From: Escherichia phage V18 | Reading direction: 5' to 3' (one strand) | Length of the DNA stretch: 64,000 nucleotides | Sequence record: NC_041937.1 | Shown here: piece after piece, positions 10,060 through 51,809 of the stretch | How positions within the stretch are numbered: position 1 is the first letter of the stretch | Layout: each line of letters opens with the position of its first letter | The notes under the pieces: generated by a model | The model's database searches: none | Seen by the model: only the letters and a program-made list of their open reading frames with translations | Told to the model about the DNA's origin: nothing | Translations under genes and position numbers: made by a program

Positions 10060-11559
10060 TTACCAAAGGTCGGTAGACATGAAGTTGATATCTTTGCTGT
10101 TCTCCCACTCAAGTTTTGCATCAAGTATTTTGCTAAACTCACCCTCATCTATGGAAAGCGTGATTTTCCCATCACTGATCTCTAAAGGTAGCATTTCCAT
10201 AGTTCTTAATTGAGAAGCAAAACCAGGGCCACCTGGCAACGGAAGAGTCCCGCCCGGCAAAGTGTCCAAAGGATTAACAAACCCGTTACCTCCCGATATG
10301 ATATCTTTGCGAATCATATCGCTGATAGTATCCAGTTGCTGATTTCTTTCACTCAGTGGGTTGAAACGGTCATTAAATAATTCCCCGGCGCTTAATATTG
10401 TACCGATAATGCCCAGCTTGCCGAGCAGACCAACTTTACCACCAGGTGTCTTGAGGCCACCTCCACCTTTTCCTGCCGCGCCACCACTACTAGATCCTTC
10501 TGCAGTAGCGGCACCCGCTGCTCCAGCTGCACCCCTTAGAGAGTTAAGGAATTTAAAGGTTTTTACAAGCATAGATGCCATGACAAAACCTTTTGTTAGG
10601 GCGTTGACTACCAGCATGATGGCAGCAGCAAACCCTGCCCATTTAGCATAGCTAAAGGTGTCATGAAGCTCTTCAGAATATTCCTTCGTCTTAGCTGTTA
10701 TGAATCCCCATTTAATCCCCCATTCAAGGAAAAACATGCGGATCTTGACTATAGTGTTGTTTAGTTCACCAACTACCCAGTTAAGGCCTCTCACAAACCC
10801 ACTAACAAAATCACCAGAGGCATCCCACACAAATTGCAGAGTCTCACCAGTGCGGATTAATGTATAATAGAACTCTGTTAGTTCGTCAGACCAACGGGTG
10901 AACAGTTTCTGACGAGTCAGTTCGATGAAGGTTTTCAGTCTGTTTTCTGCCAGCACGTTAGACTTCTGCATTCTTTCATAACCAGCTGCAGATGCCTCGT
11001 TCATGTACTTAGCCACATACTTCATGATCTTGGCTGTTTTAACCTCACCTTTCTTCATCATGTCCATGAACTGATCCATGGATAGTTCAGAAAGACCAAA
11101 AGCCTCTTTAGTGGCCTTGATAAAAGGTTCGTATGCACCAGGCAAGGCTTCAGCAAGTTGTTGCTTCAGTTCTTCGGACATTACTTGTCCCTTGCCAAGC
11201 ATCTGTTGGATTGCCATAATACCGCGCTGGTATTTTACCTCATCAGCACCATAAGCAGCAGCATACTGGGAGTATGCAGAAAACAGCTCATGCACTTCCT
11301 GATTTGTCATCTGGTTTTTGGCGTTTACCGACATCTGGGCGTAACCTTGAAGACCAGATTTGAGATCAAAACCAAGACGCATAGCCTCTTGCTGGACAAA
11401 CGCAACCTCACTGTTGGCTTTGTTTGGATCTCCAGTAACAGCAGTAAGAGCAGCACTTGCCCCCTCCATCATGTGACCGGATCTGTTAACCGCAGCAAAT
11501 CCAGAAAAAGCTGTATACGCAGCTGTTGCATTAATAACAGATCTACGTAAGTCTCTCAT
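10060..11559 (-). CDS. tape measure protein
   Basis: 499 aa; long helical protein with hydrophobic segment and Gly-rich stretch (GAAGAAGAATAEGSSSGGAAGKGGGG); sits after tube and chaperone genes. Confidence 0.65.
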   Translation of the reverse strand: MRDLRRSVINATAAYTAFSGFAAVNRSGHMMEGASAALTAVTGDPNKANSEVAFVQQEAMRLGFDLKSGLQGYAQMSVNAKNQMTNQEVHELFSAYSQYAAAYGADEVKYQRGIMAIQQMLGKGQVMSEELKQQLAEALPGAYEPFIKATKEAFGLSELSMDQFMDMMKKGEVKTAKIMKYVAKYMNEASAAGYERMQKSNVLAENRLKTFIELTRQKLFTRWSDELTEFYYTLIRTGETLQFVWDASGDFVSGFVRGLNWVVGELNNTIVKIRMFFLEWGIKWGFITAKTKEYSEELHDTFSYAKWAGFAAAIMLVVNALTKGFVMASMLVKTFKFLNSLRGAAGAAGAATAEGSSSGGAAGKGGGGLKTPGGKVGLLGKLGIIGTILSAGELFNDRFNPLSERNQQLDTISDMIRKDIISGGNGFVNPLDTLPGGTLPLPGGPGFASQLRTMEMLPLEISDGKITLSIDEGEFSKILDAKLEWENSKDINFMSTDLW

Positions 11560-15445: not shown

Positions 15446-15829
15446 TCAACGGCACTCTTTGAGGTGAGATTGTTGAATTGTTAGAGTAGGCAAAGCACGA
15501 TCCAGAGGGAAATACTTATCATAAAACATTGGAAGGTTTATTGCTTGCAATACTCTGCTAAGTGCAGCATATGCCCTGCCACGATAAGCTGTTAGCAGAT
15601 AGGTAACAGTGTAACTGTGGGTGACACAAGCATTACCCTCCGCATCTTGAAACTCATTATCTTCCCAAGTGGTAGGATTGATCGCCAAGGTTTGTAAAAG
15701 TACAAACTCACCTTCCGGCTTCGGTATGGTAGAGCTTTCTGCCAGAACTACAGTTCTTCCTGTGGCAACCTTGACGAGCTTAGCAATGGTTGTTTCAAGA
15801 TCAGAAAAAACTTTTTCGAAAGCTTCCAT
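15446..15829 (-). CDS. hypothetical head-tail joining/completion protein
   Basis: 127 aa ORF in coupled array between capsid and sheath genes. Confidence 0.4.
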   Translation of the reverse strand: MEAFEKVFSDLETTIAKLVKVATGRTVVLAESSTIPKPEGEFVLLQTLAINPTTWEDNEFQDAEGNACVTHSYTVTYLLTAYRGRAYAALSRVLQAINLPMFYDKYFPLDRALPTLTIQQSHLKECR

Positions 15830-18387: not shown

Positions 18388-19212
18388 TTATTCACCACCT
18401 TTCAGAGTTGCTTTAACAACCAGCTCTGGACGGGTGTTAACTGCCAGCATGGAAGTTTCAGATTCAATCTTCTCTTCACGCAGGTATGCAGAGTGTTTAT
18501 ACCACATGTACAGTTCCTGTGCTGGAGTGTTTGCTTCGTTAACATCGTCTGCCGGAGCAAAGTGCAGCTGGAACATCTGATCAATACCCATCGGCAGAAT
18601 GCGAGCTTCTTTCTTAGGAATATTGCCAGAGATATCTTCGATAAAGGTGATACCTTTATGCTCAAACACACGGTATACGCTGTCTTGACCGCCAGCACCC
18701 AGACGGCGACGCAGAGGTTCCTGAGCAGAGCCGTAATAGGTGTATGCCAGTTCTACCAGAGGGTCATACTGACAGGTTGTGTCACCAGGTGCATAGGATT
18801 TACCCAGAATAGCCTGGAACAGCGCTTTCTCACGCAGTGCTTCATGAGAAACACGGATACGGCGAACAACGCGGGTTACTACGTCCTGAACAGTTTTCGG
18901 AGCATCAGGTGTGAAGTAACGACGGAAGTTCTGAACATCTGCTGCGGTGATGCCTTTGTCCAGAGGGAAGAACGGGATGTTCAGGTTTTTAACCTGAGCA
19001 CGTTCACTACCAACGTAGTTACGCTCACCACCACGACGGCGTGCCGGAATGTCGGTTACAACTTCATCAACACGCTCAATCTGAGCAATTGTTGAGGTGC
19101 CGAGACGGGTTTCGAACAGATCCATACCAGTAATCAGGCGGAATTGACGCGGAACAAGGTCCAGAGTAGCACCTAAATCAACAATGCCAAATTCATCTTT
19201 ACGAGTAATCAT
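18388..19212 (-). CDS. putative major capsid protein
   Basis: 274 aa; strongly biased GC-rich codon usage unlike neighbours (high expression); downstream of portal and head ORFs; perfect 10 bp GC hairpin terminator follows. Confidence 0.55.
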   Translation of the reverse strand: MITRKDEFGIVDLGATLDLVPRQFRLITGMDLFETRLGTSTIAQIERVDEVVTDIPARRRGGERNYVGSERAQVKNLNIPFFPLDKGITAADVQNFRRYFTPDAPKTVQDVVTRVVRRIRVSHEALREKALFQAILGKSYAPGDTTCQYDPLVELAYTYYGSAQEPLRRRLGAGGQDSVYRVFEHKGITFIEDISGNIPKKEARILPMGIDQMFQLHFAPADDVNEANTPAQELYMWYKHSAYLREEKIESETSMLAVNTRPELVVKATLKGGE

Positions 19213-19296
19213 TTATTTCTCCAAAGTAAAATTGTAGCCAGCATCGCTAGAATCAACTTTGCCGAGCACGATATCAGAATATTGAGCGGTAATCAT
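19213..19296 (-). CDS. small upstream ORF (27 aa) preceding capsid gene
   Basis: MITAQYSDIVLGKVDSSDAGYNFTLEK; shares GAAATAAATGATTAC initiation region with the capsid gene; may be leader peptide or non-functional. Confidence 0.25.
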   Translation of the reverse strand: MITAQYSDIVLGKVDSSDAGYNFTLEK

Positions 19297-19380
19297 TTAT
19301 TTCCCCCGTTAAACTCTTATGCTTCAGCAGATCCAGATACTCTTTAGTTTTGGTTGCGTCCCTTGATCAGGTTCCCTTCT

Positions 19381-19728
19381 TTATCGAAGAGATCCCAGCC
19401 TACCAATACAAGACTCTGCGTCAGCTTGCGCCCATTCCCAATCAGGATGCTCTTTAGCCCAAGCCTCCTCTTCAATCTCAAAACCAAGCATGTGTGCAAG
19501 TGCTTTAGCATCATCATACCACATATCGAAGAAACGACGCAAGTATTCTTCAAAACTAAGCTCCACAGTAACTTGGCGAAGTGCCTTAACAATATCGTCT
19601 GTTAACTGCTCAGGCTTAAGATCACTCTTCATCAAAAGAGATACAGGTCTGTTGTTAGCGCTATAGCCTTGCGCCTTATGGCACAGGGCAATCCCCTTCT
19701 CTTTAATAGTAATCGTTTTTTCAGACAT
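19381..19728 (-). CDS. hypothetical head protein
   Basis: 115 aa acidic ORF between portal and capsid genes. Confidence 0.4.
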   Translation of the reverse strand: MSEKTITIKEKGIALCHKAQGYSANNRPVSLLMKSDLKPEQLTDDIVKALRQVTVELSFEEYLRRFFDMWYDDAKALAHMLGFEIEEEAWAKEHPDWEWAQADAESCIGRLGSLR

Positions 19729-21873: not shown

Positions 21874-23429
21874 TTAGATAAAACGCTTGAACATAGAAGG
21901 TGATGAGATTGATGGAATCACACAAGGAAGTGCTACCTCCTCTTTCTCCAGGAAATTAATCGCAGAAGCTACACAGTCGGCCCAGTCGTCTTTTCTGTTA
22001 AATGTTGATCTTTCCCCGTTGAATTTTTCAAGTTCAGTCAGAAATGCTTCCAGAGTATCAGGATGGAAACTGGATTTTACAATCCTCACCATTCCTTGTT
22101 GGGCAAGATTGGCAAAAGGTGAGAACCTTGTCAGTTTAGATTTGTTGGAAGGCATTGGGTCTTCTTCAACCCTAAACCCTTCGGCAAGCAAGGATCTGGA
22201 GGAGGTTAAGAACTCACTCTTACCTGCCTGACCGGGGTCCACAGAGAATACGATTATACAATCATCACCATCAAACTGCGCCTGTTTCCTGATGATCACA
22301 TCTCGTTCACCAGCCTTTTTACAGAACTTGCCTTCCAGACCTGTGGAATACCTCCCGTCATCCACGTTCTCAGGACAATAATCCCCGGACAGGTAATAAA
22401 AGCCGTCGCTATCTTTACTTACCTTGACACTGGCGGTAAAGTCAGGAAATTTATTACCGGAAGTTCTCTCGGTTCCTGCTTTATCCCATGCCCTGCAAGA
22501 CACTGATCCAAGGGGTACTCTATCGGCATCACGAAGGAAAGATCTTTGAAAATAGTTTGCACCCTCAGGCTTTGCAAACCAGTTACCATGGAGAAGCTGA
22601 GCTTTTTCAAGCTCGGGCAGACCTTCAAGGAAAGCAAGGTATTCTGGGTTGTCTCTTAAGCAGACAGGATTATCGAAGATTGTTGCGCCTATAAACGAGA
22701 ATGACAACGGTCTCGGCTTGATCTCTACACCCAGTCCGTTAACCGTGGTGTATTTCTCTATCAACTCTTCTTTAGAGTCTCCCCAGATAAATTCACCGTC
22801 GCGTCGGATAAAATATCTTTTCTTACCGCATTTCTCCGGATCTGGATACCCTTCATCGTCCAACCACCACCTAACCAGTTTGGCAAGCATGTGTTCTGAA
22901 TCGGGGTTACAGCTGATAACCATTCTTGATGGATACTTTGACTGAGATCTCAGACGAGACATCAGATAGTCTATCTGCTCCCATTCGAACTGCGTGCCTC
23001 ATCGAAGCAAACCAAGCAAACCATGGTATACTCAAGCCCTTGATGGTTAAGCTTATCTTGTACATACTCCATGTGGCAGTATTTTACAACAGCTCCCTTT
23101 TTGCTTCTATCCCACTTGCCAGTGTTCGGATCAAACCGTGGAAAAATGAACTTATGATCCTTCTCTCTGAACTTTGGCTTAATGTTTTCAGGCAGATCAC
23201 TATAAATAGCTACTGCTTTAGGCCATAGTCCACCCTCACCTTCCAACTGTGGGGTTGTTCTTCGGAACATAACCACAGAGCTGTGGGGGTCATCAATAAT
23301 TTTAAGTGGCATCAATTGCAAGAGGAACGACTTGCCAGACCCTGCGGCACCGCCGATTACCAAAATATCTGCATCGTTTTCGAGGATCATCTTCTGCTTT
23401 TCAGAACACGGTCCGTAAATCTTAGACAT
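21874..23429 (-). CDS. terminase large subunit, split into two frames (ATPase ORF 22971-23429, nuclease ORF 21874-22962)
   Basis: Walker A GGAAGSGKS and Walker B CLVCFDEA in N-terminal ORF; other frame continues ...EWEQIDYLMSRLRSQSKYPSRMVISCNPD after a single frame change. Confidence 0.75.
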
Positions 23430-23716: not shown

Positions 23717-24111
23717 TGATCCTCCTGATTGATACTCTCATTATAAATATCTATAAGCTGATCAGGAAGTGTTGACTTCTTGCCTTCAGGTGACTGGAGG
23801 TAGATAATCTGCTTTTCTTTACCTGCCTTCTCAGCCATATTTAATTTATCCTGCAGATCAGAAAGGGATTTTTCAAGGTTTTTAACCTCCTCTGCGTGGC
23901 CCATTTTAATTTTGTCGGCCTGCTTTTGTTGCTGATCAAGGATCCGTTCCCACTTTAACTCTGTTGCTGACACACCCTCTTGGTAGGCTTCATTAAGCTT
24001 AGAGTTAAACCAATATACGGCCCCAAGATAAGCTGTACCTAGCGCAGCTGCAAAAACTAAACCTTTTATGATCCCTCTATACCTACTCAGCCATGTTAAA
24101 ACTGAAATCAT
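23713..24111 (-). CDS. i-spanin (Rz-like)
   Basis: 132 aa; N-terminal transmembrane helix (LVFAAALGTAYLGAVYWF) then coiled coil; paired with lipoprotein ORF. Confidence 0.55.
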   Translation of the reverse strand: MISVLTWLSRYRGIIKGLVFAAALGTAYLGAVYWFNSKLNEAYQEGVSATELKWERILDQQQKQADKIKMGHAEEVKNLEKSLSDLQDKLNMAEKAGKEKQIIYLQSPEGKKSTLPDQLIDIYNESINQEDQ

Positions 24112-24127
24112 TTTAAGGCTCCAGAAA

Positions 24128-24164
24128 CGAAAAAACCCCGCAGCTATACAGCTAACGGGGCGGG
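24128..24164 (-). terminator. terminator-like structured element upstream of spanin genes
   Basis: CCCGC ... GCGGG stem enclosing AGCT-ATAC-AGCT palindrome, followed by T-run on minus strand. Confidence 0.35.
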
Positions 24165-24209
24165 TTAAAATTGAGTAACCTAAATAGATCGAAACTAACT
24201 AAAAGGAGA

Positions 24210-24485
24210 CTAATACTTATCGAGCACTCGGTGGATGATTCTAACAGTAACTGCATTTTCATTCATCAAGTATGCATCTACATCTCTGTAAATATAAAAC
24301 TTCTGCTCACTATCAACAACACAAGCTACTGCCCCTTCAGAGTTGTCTTCAAAAAAGACCACCACTGCATCGCAGCTGAGTTCATGATATGACTCTCGAA
24401 GATTTACAGCCAGAGGATTGAAATCGTCACGAAAATCTACAGTATGGGTTGGATTTACACGCTCTACAATTTTAAGTGTATACAT
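24210..24485 (-). CDS. hypothetical protein
   Basis: 91 aa ORF between tRNA cluster and spanin genes; terminator-like structure downstream. Confidence 0.45.
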   Translation of the reverse strand: MYTLKIVERVNPTHTVDFRDDFNPLAVNLRESYHELSCDAVVVFFEDNSEGAVACVVDSEQKFYIYRDVDAYLMNENAVTVRIIHRVLDKY

Positions 24486-24531
24486 TTTAAAGGTTCCTTT
24501 TGTTTATATATGTTTAAAGTATAACTGAAAG

Positions 24532-24608
24532 TGGTCTCCACGGAGTGATTCGAACACTCGACCTCCTGATCCCAATGGTTTATCTCTACCAAGCTGAGCT
24601 ACGCGGAG
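24532..24608 (-). tRNA. tRNA-like gene, Pro(UGG)-like, with non-pairing 5' anticodon-stem strand
   Basis: Hand-folded: acceptor CTCCGCG/CGTGGAG, T-arm GAGTG-TTCGAAT-CACTC, encoded CCA, loop ATTGGGA, but AAACC cannot pair with TCAGG. Confidence 0.45.
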
Positions 24609-24619
24609 TATTTATTATT

Positions 24620-24694
24620 TGGTGGCCCTGGGTGGAATTGAACCACCGTCTGGCGATTATGAGTCGCTTGCTTGAACCTTCCAGCTACAGGGCA
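24620..24694 (-). tRNA. tRNA-Met (anticodon CAT)
   Basis: Hand-folded cloverleaf: anticodon loop CTCATAA, T-arm GGTGG-TTCAATT-CCACC, encoded CCA; position 1:72 is a T:C mismatch. Confidence 0.6.
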
Positions 24695-24770
24695 TGGTGC
24701 TGATAGCAGGACTCGAACCTGCAACCTATTGATTACAAATCAATTGCACTACCAATTGTGCTACATCAGC
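24695..24770 (-). tRNA. tRNA-Thr (anticodon TGT)
   Basis: Acceptor GCTGATG/TATCAGC, D-arm GCAC/GTGC, anticodon stem ATTGA/TCAAT with loop TTTGTAA, T-arm GCAGG-TTCGAGT-CCTGC, CCA encoded. Confidence 0.7.
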
Positions 24771-24867
24771 AAAAAGGTGCTAGGTGATGGAATCGAACCA
24801 CCTATGTATTCAACGACCAATAGATTTACAGTCTACACCGCTACCTCTACGGGATAACTCCCCAATT
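24771..24867 (-). tRNA. tRNA-like element with Tyr(GUA)-type anticodon arm; acceptor stem not resolved
   Basis: Anticodon arm GTAGA-CTGTAAA-TCTAT and T-arm GGTGG-TTCGATT-CCATC present, long variable region, but 5' and 3' ends do not pair; may be degenerate or mis-folded by me. Confidence 0.3.
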
Positions 24868-24942
24868 TGGCACCCCGTACTGGACTCGAACCAGTGTCAA
24901 CGGCTTAGAAGGCCGCTGCTTTATCCACTAAGCTAACAGGGC
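24868..24942 (-). tRNA. tRNA-Arg (anticodon TCT)
   Basis: Acceptor GCCCTGT/ACGGGGT with G:U pairs, D-arm GCTT/AAGC, anticodon stem GCGGC/GCCGT with loop CTTCTAA, T-arm ACTGG-TTCGAGT-CCAGT, CCA encoded. Confidence 0.65.
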
Positions 24943-25000
24943 ACTGGGTGGCTTTCTTTTACACCTTAGCCGCCAGAAAAGGTGGGAGACCATGTTTACA

Positions 25001-25028
25001 ATATTACACTGTTAAGCAAAGTTTGTCA
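25001..25028 (-). promoter_or_regulatory. sigma70-like promoter upstream of tRNA cluster
   Basis: Minus strand TTGACA-N16-TAATAT about 60 nt upstream of first tRNA 5' end. Confidence 0.45.
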
Positions 25029-25038
25029 AGAAAATATT

Positions 25039-25377
25039 TTAGCTATTGCTAACAGGTTGTATTTCTGTGGTAAATGGCATAAAAGGTGCTGGTTTTTCAG
25101 CCTCTTCTACTACCACCTCTTCCTCTTCACCAAACATCTCATCATATTCTTCCTGCATTCGGTCTGCCTTATCAAGAACATACTCTGCAATGCTTTGACG
25201 AATATTTTGTTTGGTTTTCGGGTCCAACATCAGCTCTCTTAAAACTTTGTGAGCTTCTGGAACCATCGCTATAAAAGATTCCTTCATATCAAGGATGTTC
25301 TTCTCTAGCTGAATGGCGTTGGACTCCTCTTTCAGAGGTCTGCCTCTACGGCGACGCTTTTTAGTTGTATCCGCCAT
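25039..25377 (-). CDS. hypothetical basic/acidic protein
   Basis: Start placed at ATG 25377 (MADTTKKRRRRGRPLKEE...) with sigma70-like promoter upstream; longer track ORF to 25497 runs into GC-rich noncoding DNA. Confidence 0.45.
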   Translation of the reverse strand: MADTTKKRRRRGRPLKEESNAIQLEKNILDMKESFIAMVPEAHKVLRELMLDPKTKQNIRQSIAEYVLDKADRMQEEYDEMFGEEEEVVVEEAEKPAPFMPFTTEIQPVSNS

Positions 25378-25405
25378 GTTTCCTCCATTATCACGTGATA
25401 GGTGG

Positions 25406-25434
25406 ATTTTATCACAGCAAATACTGATTGTCAA
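25406..25434 (-). promoter_or_regulatory. sigma70-like promoter for ORF 25039-25377
   Basis: Minus strand TTGACA-N17-TAAAAT; palindrome ATCACGTGAT between -10 and start codon. Confidence 0.4.
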
Positions 25435-25721
25435 GTTCGCCGCAGGGGTGTATTCCCTGCGACTTGCCCAGCGTCCTGGACCAGCAAGACCCAACAAGTG
25501 GGTTACCAGAGCACATTACCGCGCTTTGGCTCGACCTTATTACAGGTTGGCTGGGGTCACATCGTCATGTGCTGGCTGCCCCTACCATTTTAAGTGTGGT
25601 GCACTATCAAGCCCTCTAAGGGGAACTCAGTCTTCTCCGAACCCTGTTTCAAAACATCCGGAGATAAAGCCATCAAATTCATCTTTAAATCGGATATTCA
25701 TCATGATACACGAAAACAACC

Positions 25722-25964
25722 TCATTGTAAAGCACAAATAAATAAAACATACTTAATTTGTTTGTTATCAGGCTCAGGGTAGAAGTAGAAGATCTTGCTA
25801 TCACCGATCTGAACACCACCATCCCAACAGCATAGCCCATAACCCGTATTCATACAAGCTAAGTCGTTGGCAAAATCTATTGCATCATCCAGTGCACGAA
25901 ATTCACCTTCATCTTCTAAATAATCCTCATTCATGGAACGAAAAACGAGCTTAACCTTAAACAT
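25722..25964 (-). CDS. hypothetical protein
   Basis: 80 aa ORF, co-oriented with neighbouring leftward genes. Confidence 0.4.
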   Translation of the reverse strand: MFKVKLVFRSMNEDYLEDEGEFRALDDAIDFANDLACMNTGYGLCCWDGGVQIGDSKIFYFYPEPDNKQIKYVLFICALQ

Positions 25965-26056
25965 AGCATTACCTGTAGACCTCGTAAGTTAAAATTGTAT
26001 CACATCATATTGCAGATCTTATCAGGTAACATTATTTTTGTCAACAGATTCCGGCC

Positions 26057-47689: not shown

Positions 47690-49808
47690 AAGTTGTAAAA
47701 CGGGACGGTAGAGAAGAGTTCTATAACGGAATTAAGGTGATCAAGGCGGCAGAGTCCGCCTTACTTGAGTCTGGACATACTGAAGAAGAAGCTTACCGGA
47801 TCGCCTGCGCGGTTAATGAAGTTGTTGCTAACAATCTACCAACCGACCAGTGCACGATCTCTGTAAAAAATATCCATATCCTTGTTGAAGATGCTCTTAT
47901 GGATATGGGTTTAAAATGTGCAGCCAGAGAATACATCCAGTATAGACAGACAAGAGATAATAACAGAGAGGCAGGTGGAAAACTGCTTGCAGATATTAGT
48001 GGCTTCTTGGATCGAACTTGTGATGAATTTACAAAAGAAAACGCAAATAAGCCCACTAATCATGTACACACTCATCGTGACCTGCTTGCAGGCATCCTTA
48101 GCAAACACCTTGCATCAACACAGATCCTGCCAGACCGTGTTTCAGAAGAGCACAATAAAGGCTTCATCCATGTGCATGATCTTGACTACTTGATCAGTCC
48201 GTTAACAAACTGTTGTTTGGTAAATTATCCAGATATGTTGGAAAACGGATTCAACATTGGCAACGCCCATGTCAGTAAGCCGAAGTCAATAGGGGTTGCA
48301 ACAACAATCCTTAGCCAAATCTCTAGTGCGGTAGCTAGTGCTCAATATGGTGGTCAGACTATGAGCCATATTGATCATTATCTGGCACAGTATGCTGAAG
48401 CGACCTATGAGAAGAACCTTAAATTTTGCCAGGAACATTGGTTGCCAGATGCTGAGACTGTTGCAATGCAAATGACAGATAAAGACGTGTTTGACAGCAT
48501 GCAGACGTTGCTTTATCAGATCAACACACTAACCTCGGTAAACGGTAACCCCTTTTATCACATTAAGTTTAGGTTTGGACACTTCGGTCTTTGGTAGAAT
48601 GATTACCAAAAACTACCTGAAAGTCCACAAAATGGGTCTTGGTGAAGAACGTATTACACCTGTGTTCCCTAAAGTGCTGTTCTTCCTAGAAGAGGGTGTC
48701 AACATGAACCCTGGGGATCCTAACTACGATTTGAAACGATTAGCTCTGGAATGCTGTGCAGAACGTATCTACCTGACTTCGTATCTGTACCACTAAATAG
48801 AAAAGTGACAGGCTCGACAGATGGCAAAGTAACGAGCATGGGATATGTAGAAGTTTCTTATCGAAATATAGCGACCCTGTAACAGGCGAGGAGAAATACC
48901 TTGGCAGATTTAACTTAGGCGTTGTTAGCCTTAACCTGCCAATGATTGCGGCAAAAGCTAAGACGGAAGGTGTTGATTTCTTTGCAGTTCTTGACGAATA
49001 CTTGGATCTTGCATACGAGGCTCACCTTGTAAGGGTTAATCGTCTAAAAGGAACAAAGGCGGGGCAGAACCCCATCATGTGGTGTGAAGGCGCTCTTGCT
49101 CGCCTGGATCCCGAAGAGAGTATTGATAAACTCTTCTATGACGGGTACGCTTCCATCAGTATTGGGTATATCGGTGTGTATGAAACCTGTCAGATTTTGG
49201 GTAGAGAAGGCGACAAGGCTTTAGCTCTTGGAATCCTTCAGCACATGAGAGATGCTTGTGAGCGATACAAGAAGGAAAGTAGACTAGCATTTAGCTTGTA
49301 CGGCACTCCTTCTGAGAGTCTATGCTATAAAGCTGCAACCTGTCTGGATCGTGAATATCCGGAAGTGTTGAAGCACGAGCATGAATATCTCACCAACAGT
49401 TTCCATCAGCCAGTATGGATAAATAGCTCTCCTTTTGATAAGTGGGAGTATGAGGAAGGTTTTGCTATGATCTCCTCTGGTGGCAACATCGGATACGTAG
49501 AGACACCTAACCTGAAAAACAACCTGGATGCTTTAGAGGCCCTTGTTGACTTCGGGTATAAACACATTATGTATTTTGGTATTAACCAACCTGTAGATAA
49601 ATGTCTCAAGTGTGGTTTCTCTGGTGAGTTCAGTGCAACAGCTAAAGGCTTTGTATGCCCAGAGTGTGGAAACCATGAAGAGGGAACGATCAGTGTAATT
49701 CGACGTGTGTCTGGATACCTTTCCAGTCCTAACTCCCGTCCTTACAATAAAGGTAAGCAAGCGGAAGTTATCGAGCGAGTTAAGCACTACGGAAGTTGTG
49801 GTTGCTGA
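47686..49808 (+). CDS. nrdD: anaerobic ribonucleoside-triphosphate reductase, interrupted by three frame changes
   Basis: N-terminal ATP-cone; segments resembling E. coli NrdD (ERIYPDF...KVTGS, CRSFL, RFNLGVVSLNLPMIA, glycyl-radical RVSGYL, CxxC zinc ribbon) lie in frames 1, 2, 1 and 0. Confidence 0.7.
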
Positions 49809-50983: not shown

Positions 50984-51021
50984 AAGTACTTGGCACATCT
51001 CAATCTGAAAGGAGTCCCAAC

Positions 51022-51809
51022 ATGGGTCGAGCTAAAGAAACAAAACGCATGCGTGATGAAGCTAGAGAGGCTCGCAAATCTGATCGCCTGCGTAAGGCTG
51101 CTGAGAAATTTGCTGACGAACGAGAGCACACTGCTCCAGCTCTCCGACCAATGAATAAGAAGCAGCAAAAGTATCTTGATTACCTAGGGTCGCGTAAAAT
51201 TATCATTGTAAACGGAGTGTTTGGGTCTGGTAAAACATTCATGGCATCTGCTATGCAGGTGACCTTCTGCGTAAGAATGAAATTGATAAGATCATTGTTG
51301 CACGTCCTTACGTTCAGACAGGAAAGACTTCAGGATTTAAACCTGGAAATGCAATGCAGAAACTGTGGCCCTATCTTCGAAGCATGATGGACACGATTTG
51401 TCGTCGTGTTGGCAAAGGTGCTTTTGCCGCAATGCTGGGAGACGGTCAGAACAGCCGTATCGAGATTTGTGAAGTTGAAAGCATTCGTGGTCGTAGTTTC
51501 GATGAGCGATGCTTTGTCCTGATTGACGAGGCACAGCAAACTAACCCTGAAGAAATGTTGTCAATTATCACAAGGATCTCTGATCAAGCCACCCTTGTAA
51601 TTATGGGTGATAATAGCCAACGTGACATCCCTGGTAAATCTGGCCTTGCATGGGTGACGGATTTCTTTACTCGTCATCCAGATCCTGAGGTTGGAATGAT
51701 CAGCTTTGATAGTCCAGACGATGTCGTTCGTTCTGGGTTGGGTCGTCAGATCGCACTCAATCTTATTGAGGATCGTGCAAATCATATTTGGACCCCTGTT
51801 TCCGAGTAA
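51022..51809 (+). CDS. phoH: PhoH-like ATPase, frame change near 51250
   Basis: Walker A GVFGSGKTFMA in first ORF; second frame gives KIIVARPYVQTGKTSGFKPGN ... FVLIDEAQ. Confidence 0.65.

Follow-up and report, generated by a model that had tools for sequence, protein, structure and literature searches.

Phages related to rV5 carry a gene for a PhoH-like ATPase as a single open frame; how can the same gene come to be spread over two frames here? Has the phage lost the gene, are the two frames joined during its expression, or did a base drop out on the way to the record? The comparisons described below leave us confident, though short of certain, that the frame change is a sequencing or assembly error in the record and not a piece of phage biology.

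Layout of the phoH-like gene

The window, that is, the whole stretch of 64,000 nt that was analysed, is by its sequence a genome segment of a Vequintavirus, an rV5-like Escherichia myophage. At the locus in question, nrdD, nrdG, two small ORFs, the phoH-like gene, a 103-aa ORF, a ClpP-like protease gene and a methyltransferase gene follow one another, and this order is the same in slur16, rV5_ev147, rV5_ev168 and Murica. The features needed for the argument are these:

51010..51014, + strand: ribosome-binding site AGGAG, 7 nt 5' of the ATG at 51022, read from the sequence
51022..51809, + strand: phoH-like ATPase gene, 788 nt in two frames here, 789 nt and 262 aa in relatives
51022..51387, + strand: N-terminal ORF as read, 121 aa (77 genuine and 44 out-of-frame residues), stop at 51385-51387
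51214..51237, + strand: Walker A motif (P-loop) GVFGSGKT, in the upstream frame, aligning to GPAGSGKT of PDB 3b85
51251..51252, + strand: site of the missing base from alignments, GCA TAT GCA (Ala77 Tyr78 Ala79) in relatives and GC/T ATG CA in the window
51336..51342, + strand: heptamer T TTA AAC, whose phase in the broken upstream frame would permit -1 slippage
51354..51809, + strand: C-terminal ORF as read, 151 aa from an internal Met, with Walker B and the remaining PhoH domain
51513..51536, + strand: Walker B motif FVLIDEAQ, in the downstream frame, aligning to FVILDEAQ of PDB 3b85

The annotation of Murica has a ribosome-binding site at the position equivalent to the AGGAG above. From the ATG at 51022, the upstream frame runs for 77 residues ending NGVFGSGKTFMASA, and then goes on with 44 unrelated residues. 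The downstream frame, shifted back by one base, has no stop from about 51234 onwards, reads YAGDLLRKNEIDKIIVARPYVQTGKTSGFKPGNAMQKLW...FVLIDEAQ... and is closed by the stop at 51807-51809. Thus the Walker A motif and the FVLIDEAQ segment do lie in different frames, just as the first-pass annotation had it. That annotation had also spoken of a single-base disruption, with the two frames joined near caggtgacc within 51240-51270. Alignment to relatives agrees that exactly one base is absent and that the junction falls within this interval; its place is to be corrected, as it lies not at caggtgacc itself but about 5 nt upstream, between 51251 and 51252. Against slur16 and rV5_ev147, the only alignment gap is found at that point, where GCATATGC becomes GC-TATGC by the absence of one A; rV5_ev168 and a metagenome scaffold (L005) bear out the missing base. 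The frame changes there from phase 1 to phase 0, and reading through it would need a -1 shift.

What would the gene encode if it were read in one piece? The identification as a PhoH-like ATPase, which had been proposed from the letters and translations, is borne out by two matches, to Pfam PhoH (PF02562) and to PDB 3b85. The repaired protein scores 160.9 bits against the Pfam profile (gathering cutoff 27) and covers profile positions 2-201 of 205 in one stretch. The fragments as read score 29.0 and 87.3 bits, the N-terminal one over positions 2-49 and the C-terminal one over positions 74-201, and positions 50-73 are found in neither ORF. Since the two fragments fit contiguous parts of one PhoH profile, the split between frames is not a matter of chance. 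PDB 3b85, a 'Phosphate starvation-inducible protein', is matched over residues 40-221 (E = 2.8e-27) in an alignment that takes in both Walker motifs and the ARP...GFxPG segment, and the break falls directly after the P-loop. GVFGSGKT conforms to the P-loop pattern GxxGxGKT of the PhoH family and FVLIDEAQ to its Walker B pattern hhhhDEAQ. The gene product is thus predicted to be a P-loop ATPase of the PhoH/YbeZ family. It shares the PF02562 domain and the match to 3b85 with the cellular PhoH/YbeZ (PhoL) family, whereas it differs from the cellular proteins in a basic N-terminal extension of about 40 residues and in having neither a KH nor a PIN domain. In a review of the cellular proteins, YbeZ/PhoH-like is described as the conserved partner of YbeY, a ribosome assembly factor (PMC10582724).

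The same gene in related phages

If the split were an established trait of the group, it should be seen in other genomes of the group. The region around the break is matched by 119 GenBank phage records, with the top matches 97.5% identical, and 110 of them match over the full length at 93-98.5% identity. Nearly all of these 110 are Vequintavirus phages of Escherichia. Without exception, the 110 have a gene of 789 nt, against 788 nt in the window, and encode one 262-aa protein. GCATATGC is read in all ten relatives that were checked base by base. The entire PhoH domain, which cannot be read in one frame from the window as given, lies in one frame in 110 of 110 relatives, and in the window after repair of one base. 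The PhoH-like proteins of Vequintaviruses (slur16 CUL01563.1, Murica AKU44200.1 and rV5 NC_011041) come from the same locus with the same neighbours at a DNA identity of 97-98%; the genes of these relatives are unsplit, whereas the window copy, minus one base, becomes a split gene.

Some of the records call for comment. A record with at least 99% identity in the phage search was dismissed, being merely a 43-nt fragment. Two phages, navn and YP-6, are partial matches over the first 137 nt of phoH only. The phoH of Escherichia phage navn (MN850642.1, 69416-70210) diverges past nt 137 at the megablast level, and it was considered as a candidate for another disrupted copy; this was rejected, because the allele is divergent yet intact, with a length of 795 nt. 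Judged from this allele, the phoH locus is mosaic. In navn, the gene is followed by an additional ORF of 930 nt. Two of the 'rV5_ev' records (LR597647.1 and LR694610.1) have product names that are off by one gene, so that 'PhoH-like protein' stands on the 116-aa ORF before phoH and 'ClpP protease subunit' on the 103-aa ORF. It is also to be noted that GenBank has about 19-21 records without annotation under the name 'Campylobacter phage' (MG0656xx; listed host Campylobacter jejuni) whose identity to rV5-like phages of E. coli is 94-98%; these are probably a case of wrong host attribution, or of contamination.

Is the deletion found anywhere else? A 32-mer across it was not found in viral, genome or metagenome contig collections, the exact 121-aa N-terminal product had no record in the protein look-up, and complete E. 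coli genomes gave no match. The plasmid collection gave one match (CP057073), which is intact. The window haplotype with the A restored was not found in viral contigs. The 151-aa C-terminal fragment has one identical protein, and it comes from the metagenome scaffold mentioned above (L005; ENA ERZ28614541 scaffold_18272). This scaffold was considered as a second instance of a split phoH and rejected: its split is a run of 10 N at positions 1009-1018 of the scaffold, and it keeps GCATATGC. The indel is therefore private to this record, as an artefact would be. In literature searches on PhoH of rV5-like phages, no work dealing with frame changes in particular was found.

Repair of the single base is instructive. 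When the A is restored, the protein becomes 100% identical to those of slur16, rV5_ev147, rV5_ev168 and one further relative (L009) despite 14-22 nt differences. All the nucleotide differences in phoH against these four are synonymous in the ancestral frame, and 4-12 of them lie downstream of the break. As these downstream differences are all synonymous, the downstream part must have stayed under purifying selection in its former frame to the present day.

These observations bear directly on the idea that the deletion is real, that is, that a lineage or a sub-population of genomes has very recently lost the function of phoH, an explanation which we hold to be unlikely. Its products would be a 77-residue N-terminal piece with a 44-residue nonsense tail and possibly an internally initiated piece of 151 aa, neither of them a functional ATPase. 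Such a loss could be tolerated, as phage phoH is probably dispensable; PhoH-like genes of phages are generally regarded as accessory. The sequence alone cannot tell a mutation that is minutes old from an error, and this leaves room for a loss too recent to have left any trace downstream. The loss is, however, seen in none of the 110 relatives, which reach down to about 93% identity, and even the divergent gene of navn is intact; the purely synonymous substitutions downstream of the break also speak against it. That a genuine deletion should leave a natural rV5-like phage to propagate with no functional PhoH-like ATPase is, in our estimate, a shade less probable still.

Can the two frames be joined in the cell?

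Another possibility is recoding in vivo, with -1 ribosomal frameshifting or transcriptional slippage bridging the two frames, either at the junction or at the T TTA AAC heptamer. The shift that would be required is indeed in the -1 direction, and the heptamer is of the canonical X XXY YYZ type and lies in phase inside the overlap of the two open frames (51234-51387). How would such a mechanism fit the rest of the locus? As the residues next to the break are conserved both before it (MASA) and after it (YAGDLL), homology fixes the junction between 51251 and 51252, where the sequence GCA TCT GCT ATG CAG has no slippery motif; the sole heptamer is 85 nt further downstream. A slip at the heptamer would turn 28 conserved residues (YAGDLLRKNEIDKIIVARPYVQTGKTSG) into out-of-frame sequence. 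In relatives, the bases of the heptamer are part of GGA TTT AAA CCT, which are ordinary in-frame codons, and the two-frame layout occurs in 0 of 110. The RNA downstream of the heptamer has no significant structure: its MFE is -29.4, and shuffled sequences average -26.7 (z = -0.81). On the grounds of junction sequence, heptamer context, relatives and downstream fold, a programmed frameshift was rejected, and we think it highly improbable that any recoding takes place here. What the locus shares with known programmed -1 frameshifting systems, such as dnaX and the G/GT tail chaperones of phages, is only the direction of the shift and a chance heptamer; unlike them, it has no slippery site at the junction, no conserved two-frame layout and no stimulatory structure. 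The heptamer is judged to be a chance by-product and not a recoding signal.

Frame breaks in other genes of the window

How many other genes are broken? The first-pass annotation had remarked that the pattern in phoH recurs in several other conserved genes, and the survey bears this out, with about 18 more conserved genes having breaks specific to the window. The 110 annotated CDS of phage Murica were used as queries, 96 of which are fully covered in the window, and the pair of rV5_ev168 and Murica (107 CDS) served as a control. Frame-breaking indels were found in 19 of the 96 CDS in the window (25 events) versus only one of the 107 in the control; the sole control break is in a hibernation-factor gene, and the same event is present in the window.

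Which genes are hit? In the tape measure gene, a deletion at 11559 turns GAT GCC ATG of relatives into GAT GCA TGA, a stop at aa 280 of 778. In the large terminase gene (TerL, - strand, about 22990-23014), a 9-nt tandem duplication (GGTTTGCTT GGTTTGCTT) is accompanied by a 1-nt deletion just downstream (at about 22996), both within the segment VCFDEGTQ, which we take to be the Walker B motif of the enzyme. In rV5_ev168, TerL is interrupted at the same place by about 0.9 kb of sequence that contains an endonuclease VII gene, and the annotation joins this TerL from two pieces. The disruption in the window could have arisen as an artefact of assembly, at an insertion site that is polymorphic. The frame of a 183-aa tail-module protein is broken by a deletion at 15501, and a 334-aa protein of the tail/baseplate module, NrdD, an RnlA-like ligase and a methyltransferase are also broken. 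Single-base deletions specific to the window further break a 281-aa protein, an HNH endonuclease and several small conserved ORFs. The positions of such deletions in the window are 11559, 15501, 17906, 7913/7970, 24223, 29599, 34611, 35168, 59630, 59894, 61959 and 63556.

Two other regions are irregular in their own ways. In nrdD (48545-48862), five small indels (-2, -1, +2, -1, +1; net -1) lie clustered in a locally divergent patch near residue 288. At the same place, at least one relative (L008) has its NrdD in two fragments, of 287 and 391 aa, on either side of an HNH endonuclease gene, and the annotation of nrdD in slur16 also appears truncated. The patch in the window may be real divergence around a homing site combined with error. 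The capsid module (18764-19395, genes on the - strand) is a patchwork: in comparison with Murica and rV5_ev168, it lacks stretches of 182, 349, 366, 82 and 116 nt. These gaps hit the major capsid gene, the decoration gene and neighbouring genes, and the junctions overlap by 1-5 nt. It looks as if stretches without coverage had been closed up in the assembly.

Irregularities are also seen in the tRNA cluster (24000-26000, - strand), where ARAGORN gives only tRNA-Met, tRNA-Thr and tRNA-Arg in the window and did not detect tRNA-Pro. The annotations of Murica and rV5_ev168 list 6-7 tRNAs in this cluster (Pro, Met, Thr, Asp/Gly, Ser, Tyr and Arg). A 1-nt deletion at 24692 lies at the boundary of tRNA-Met and tRNA-Thr.

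Taken together, the breaks in the tape measure, TerL, the tail module and further genes would make a phage that is unable to form plaques. Equivalent breaks in structural genes cannot all be real in a viable phage, which lessens trust in the break in phoH as well, and the presence in the same record of such breaks in the tape measure, the terminase and other structural genes weighs against a real knock-out of phoH.

Indel spectrum and selection

Do the indels look like products of evolution or of the bench? Deletions of 1 nt outnumber insertions by 21 to 8 in the window, versus 6 to 10 in the control. Frame-breaking indels lie inside CDS in 29 of 39 cases in the window, where the coding fraction is 0.92, versus 5 of 21 in the control (Fisher p = 2.8e-4). 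The window deletions fall in runs of at least two identical bases in 16 of 21 cases (background 46%, p = 0.006), and in 15 of the 21 the lost base is a G or a C (GC content 43%, p = 0.009). The breaks are thus in excess, they reach essential genes and coding sequence is not spared, as one would expect of artefacts. These traits are shared with artefacts of error-prone or low-coverage assembly: deletion bias, short runs, G/C, indifference to coding, essential genes hit, and patchwork gaps. The phoH deletion differs from typical indel artefacts of assembly in one respect, since it lies outside a homopolymer (GC[A]TATGC), unlike most other deletions in the window. Homopolymers are the commonest context of platform errors, and this trait of the missing base is a point in favour of a real deletion.

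If the broken genes had been abandoned by selection, amino acid changes should accumulate downstream of the breaks. Summed over all broken genes and read in the ancestral frame, the ratio of amino acid to nucleotide differences downstream of breaks is 0.20, while it is 0.18 in intact genes of the window and 0.18 in the control pair. By these ratios, selection is not relaxed downstream of the breaks, and the broken genes are not decaying pseudogenes.

Concluding remarks

Where does this leave the two frames of phoH? The missing base is unique to this record, the window as a whole has an excess of such defects, and selection has not been relaxed. Probably, then, one A would have been lost between 51251 and 51252 in base-calling, in consensus building or in assembly, a technical cause to which the comparison of sequences points. 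The real phage most likely has an intact phoH-like gene of 789 nt, whose 262-aa ATPase would unite both Walker motifs in a single polypeptide as in every sequenced relative, and there is nothing novel in the break.

The lesson is chiefly one of quality control. As about one fifth of the conserved genes carry private breaks and the capsid module is incomplete, the window is unfit for the mining of pseudogenes, split genes or recoding events. Gene callers would yield from it truncated 'PhoH' proteins of 121 and 151 aa, which would pollute protein databases; a fragment of such a kind is already on record elsewhere, arising from the gap in the metagenome scaffold. If the deletion were real after all, it would be a natural knock-out, and the phoH gene that Vequintaviruses keep near-universally would prove dispensable under the conditions of isolation; even so, this would show merely that an accessory gene can be lost.
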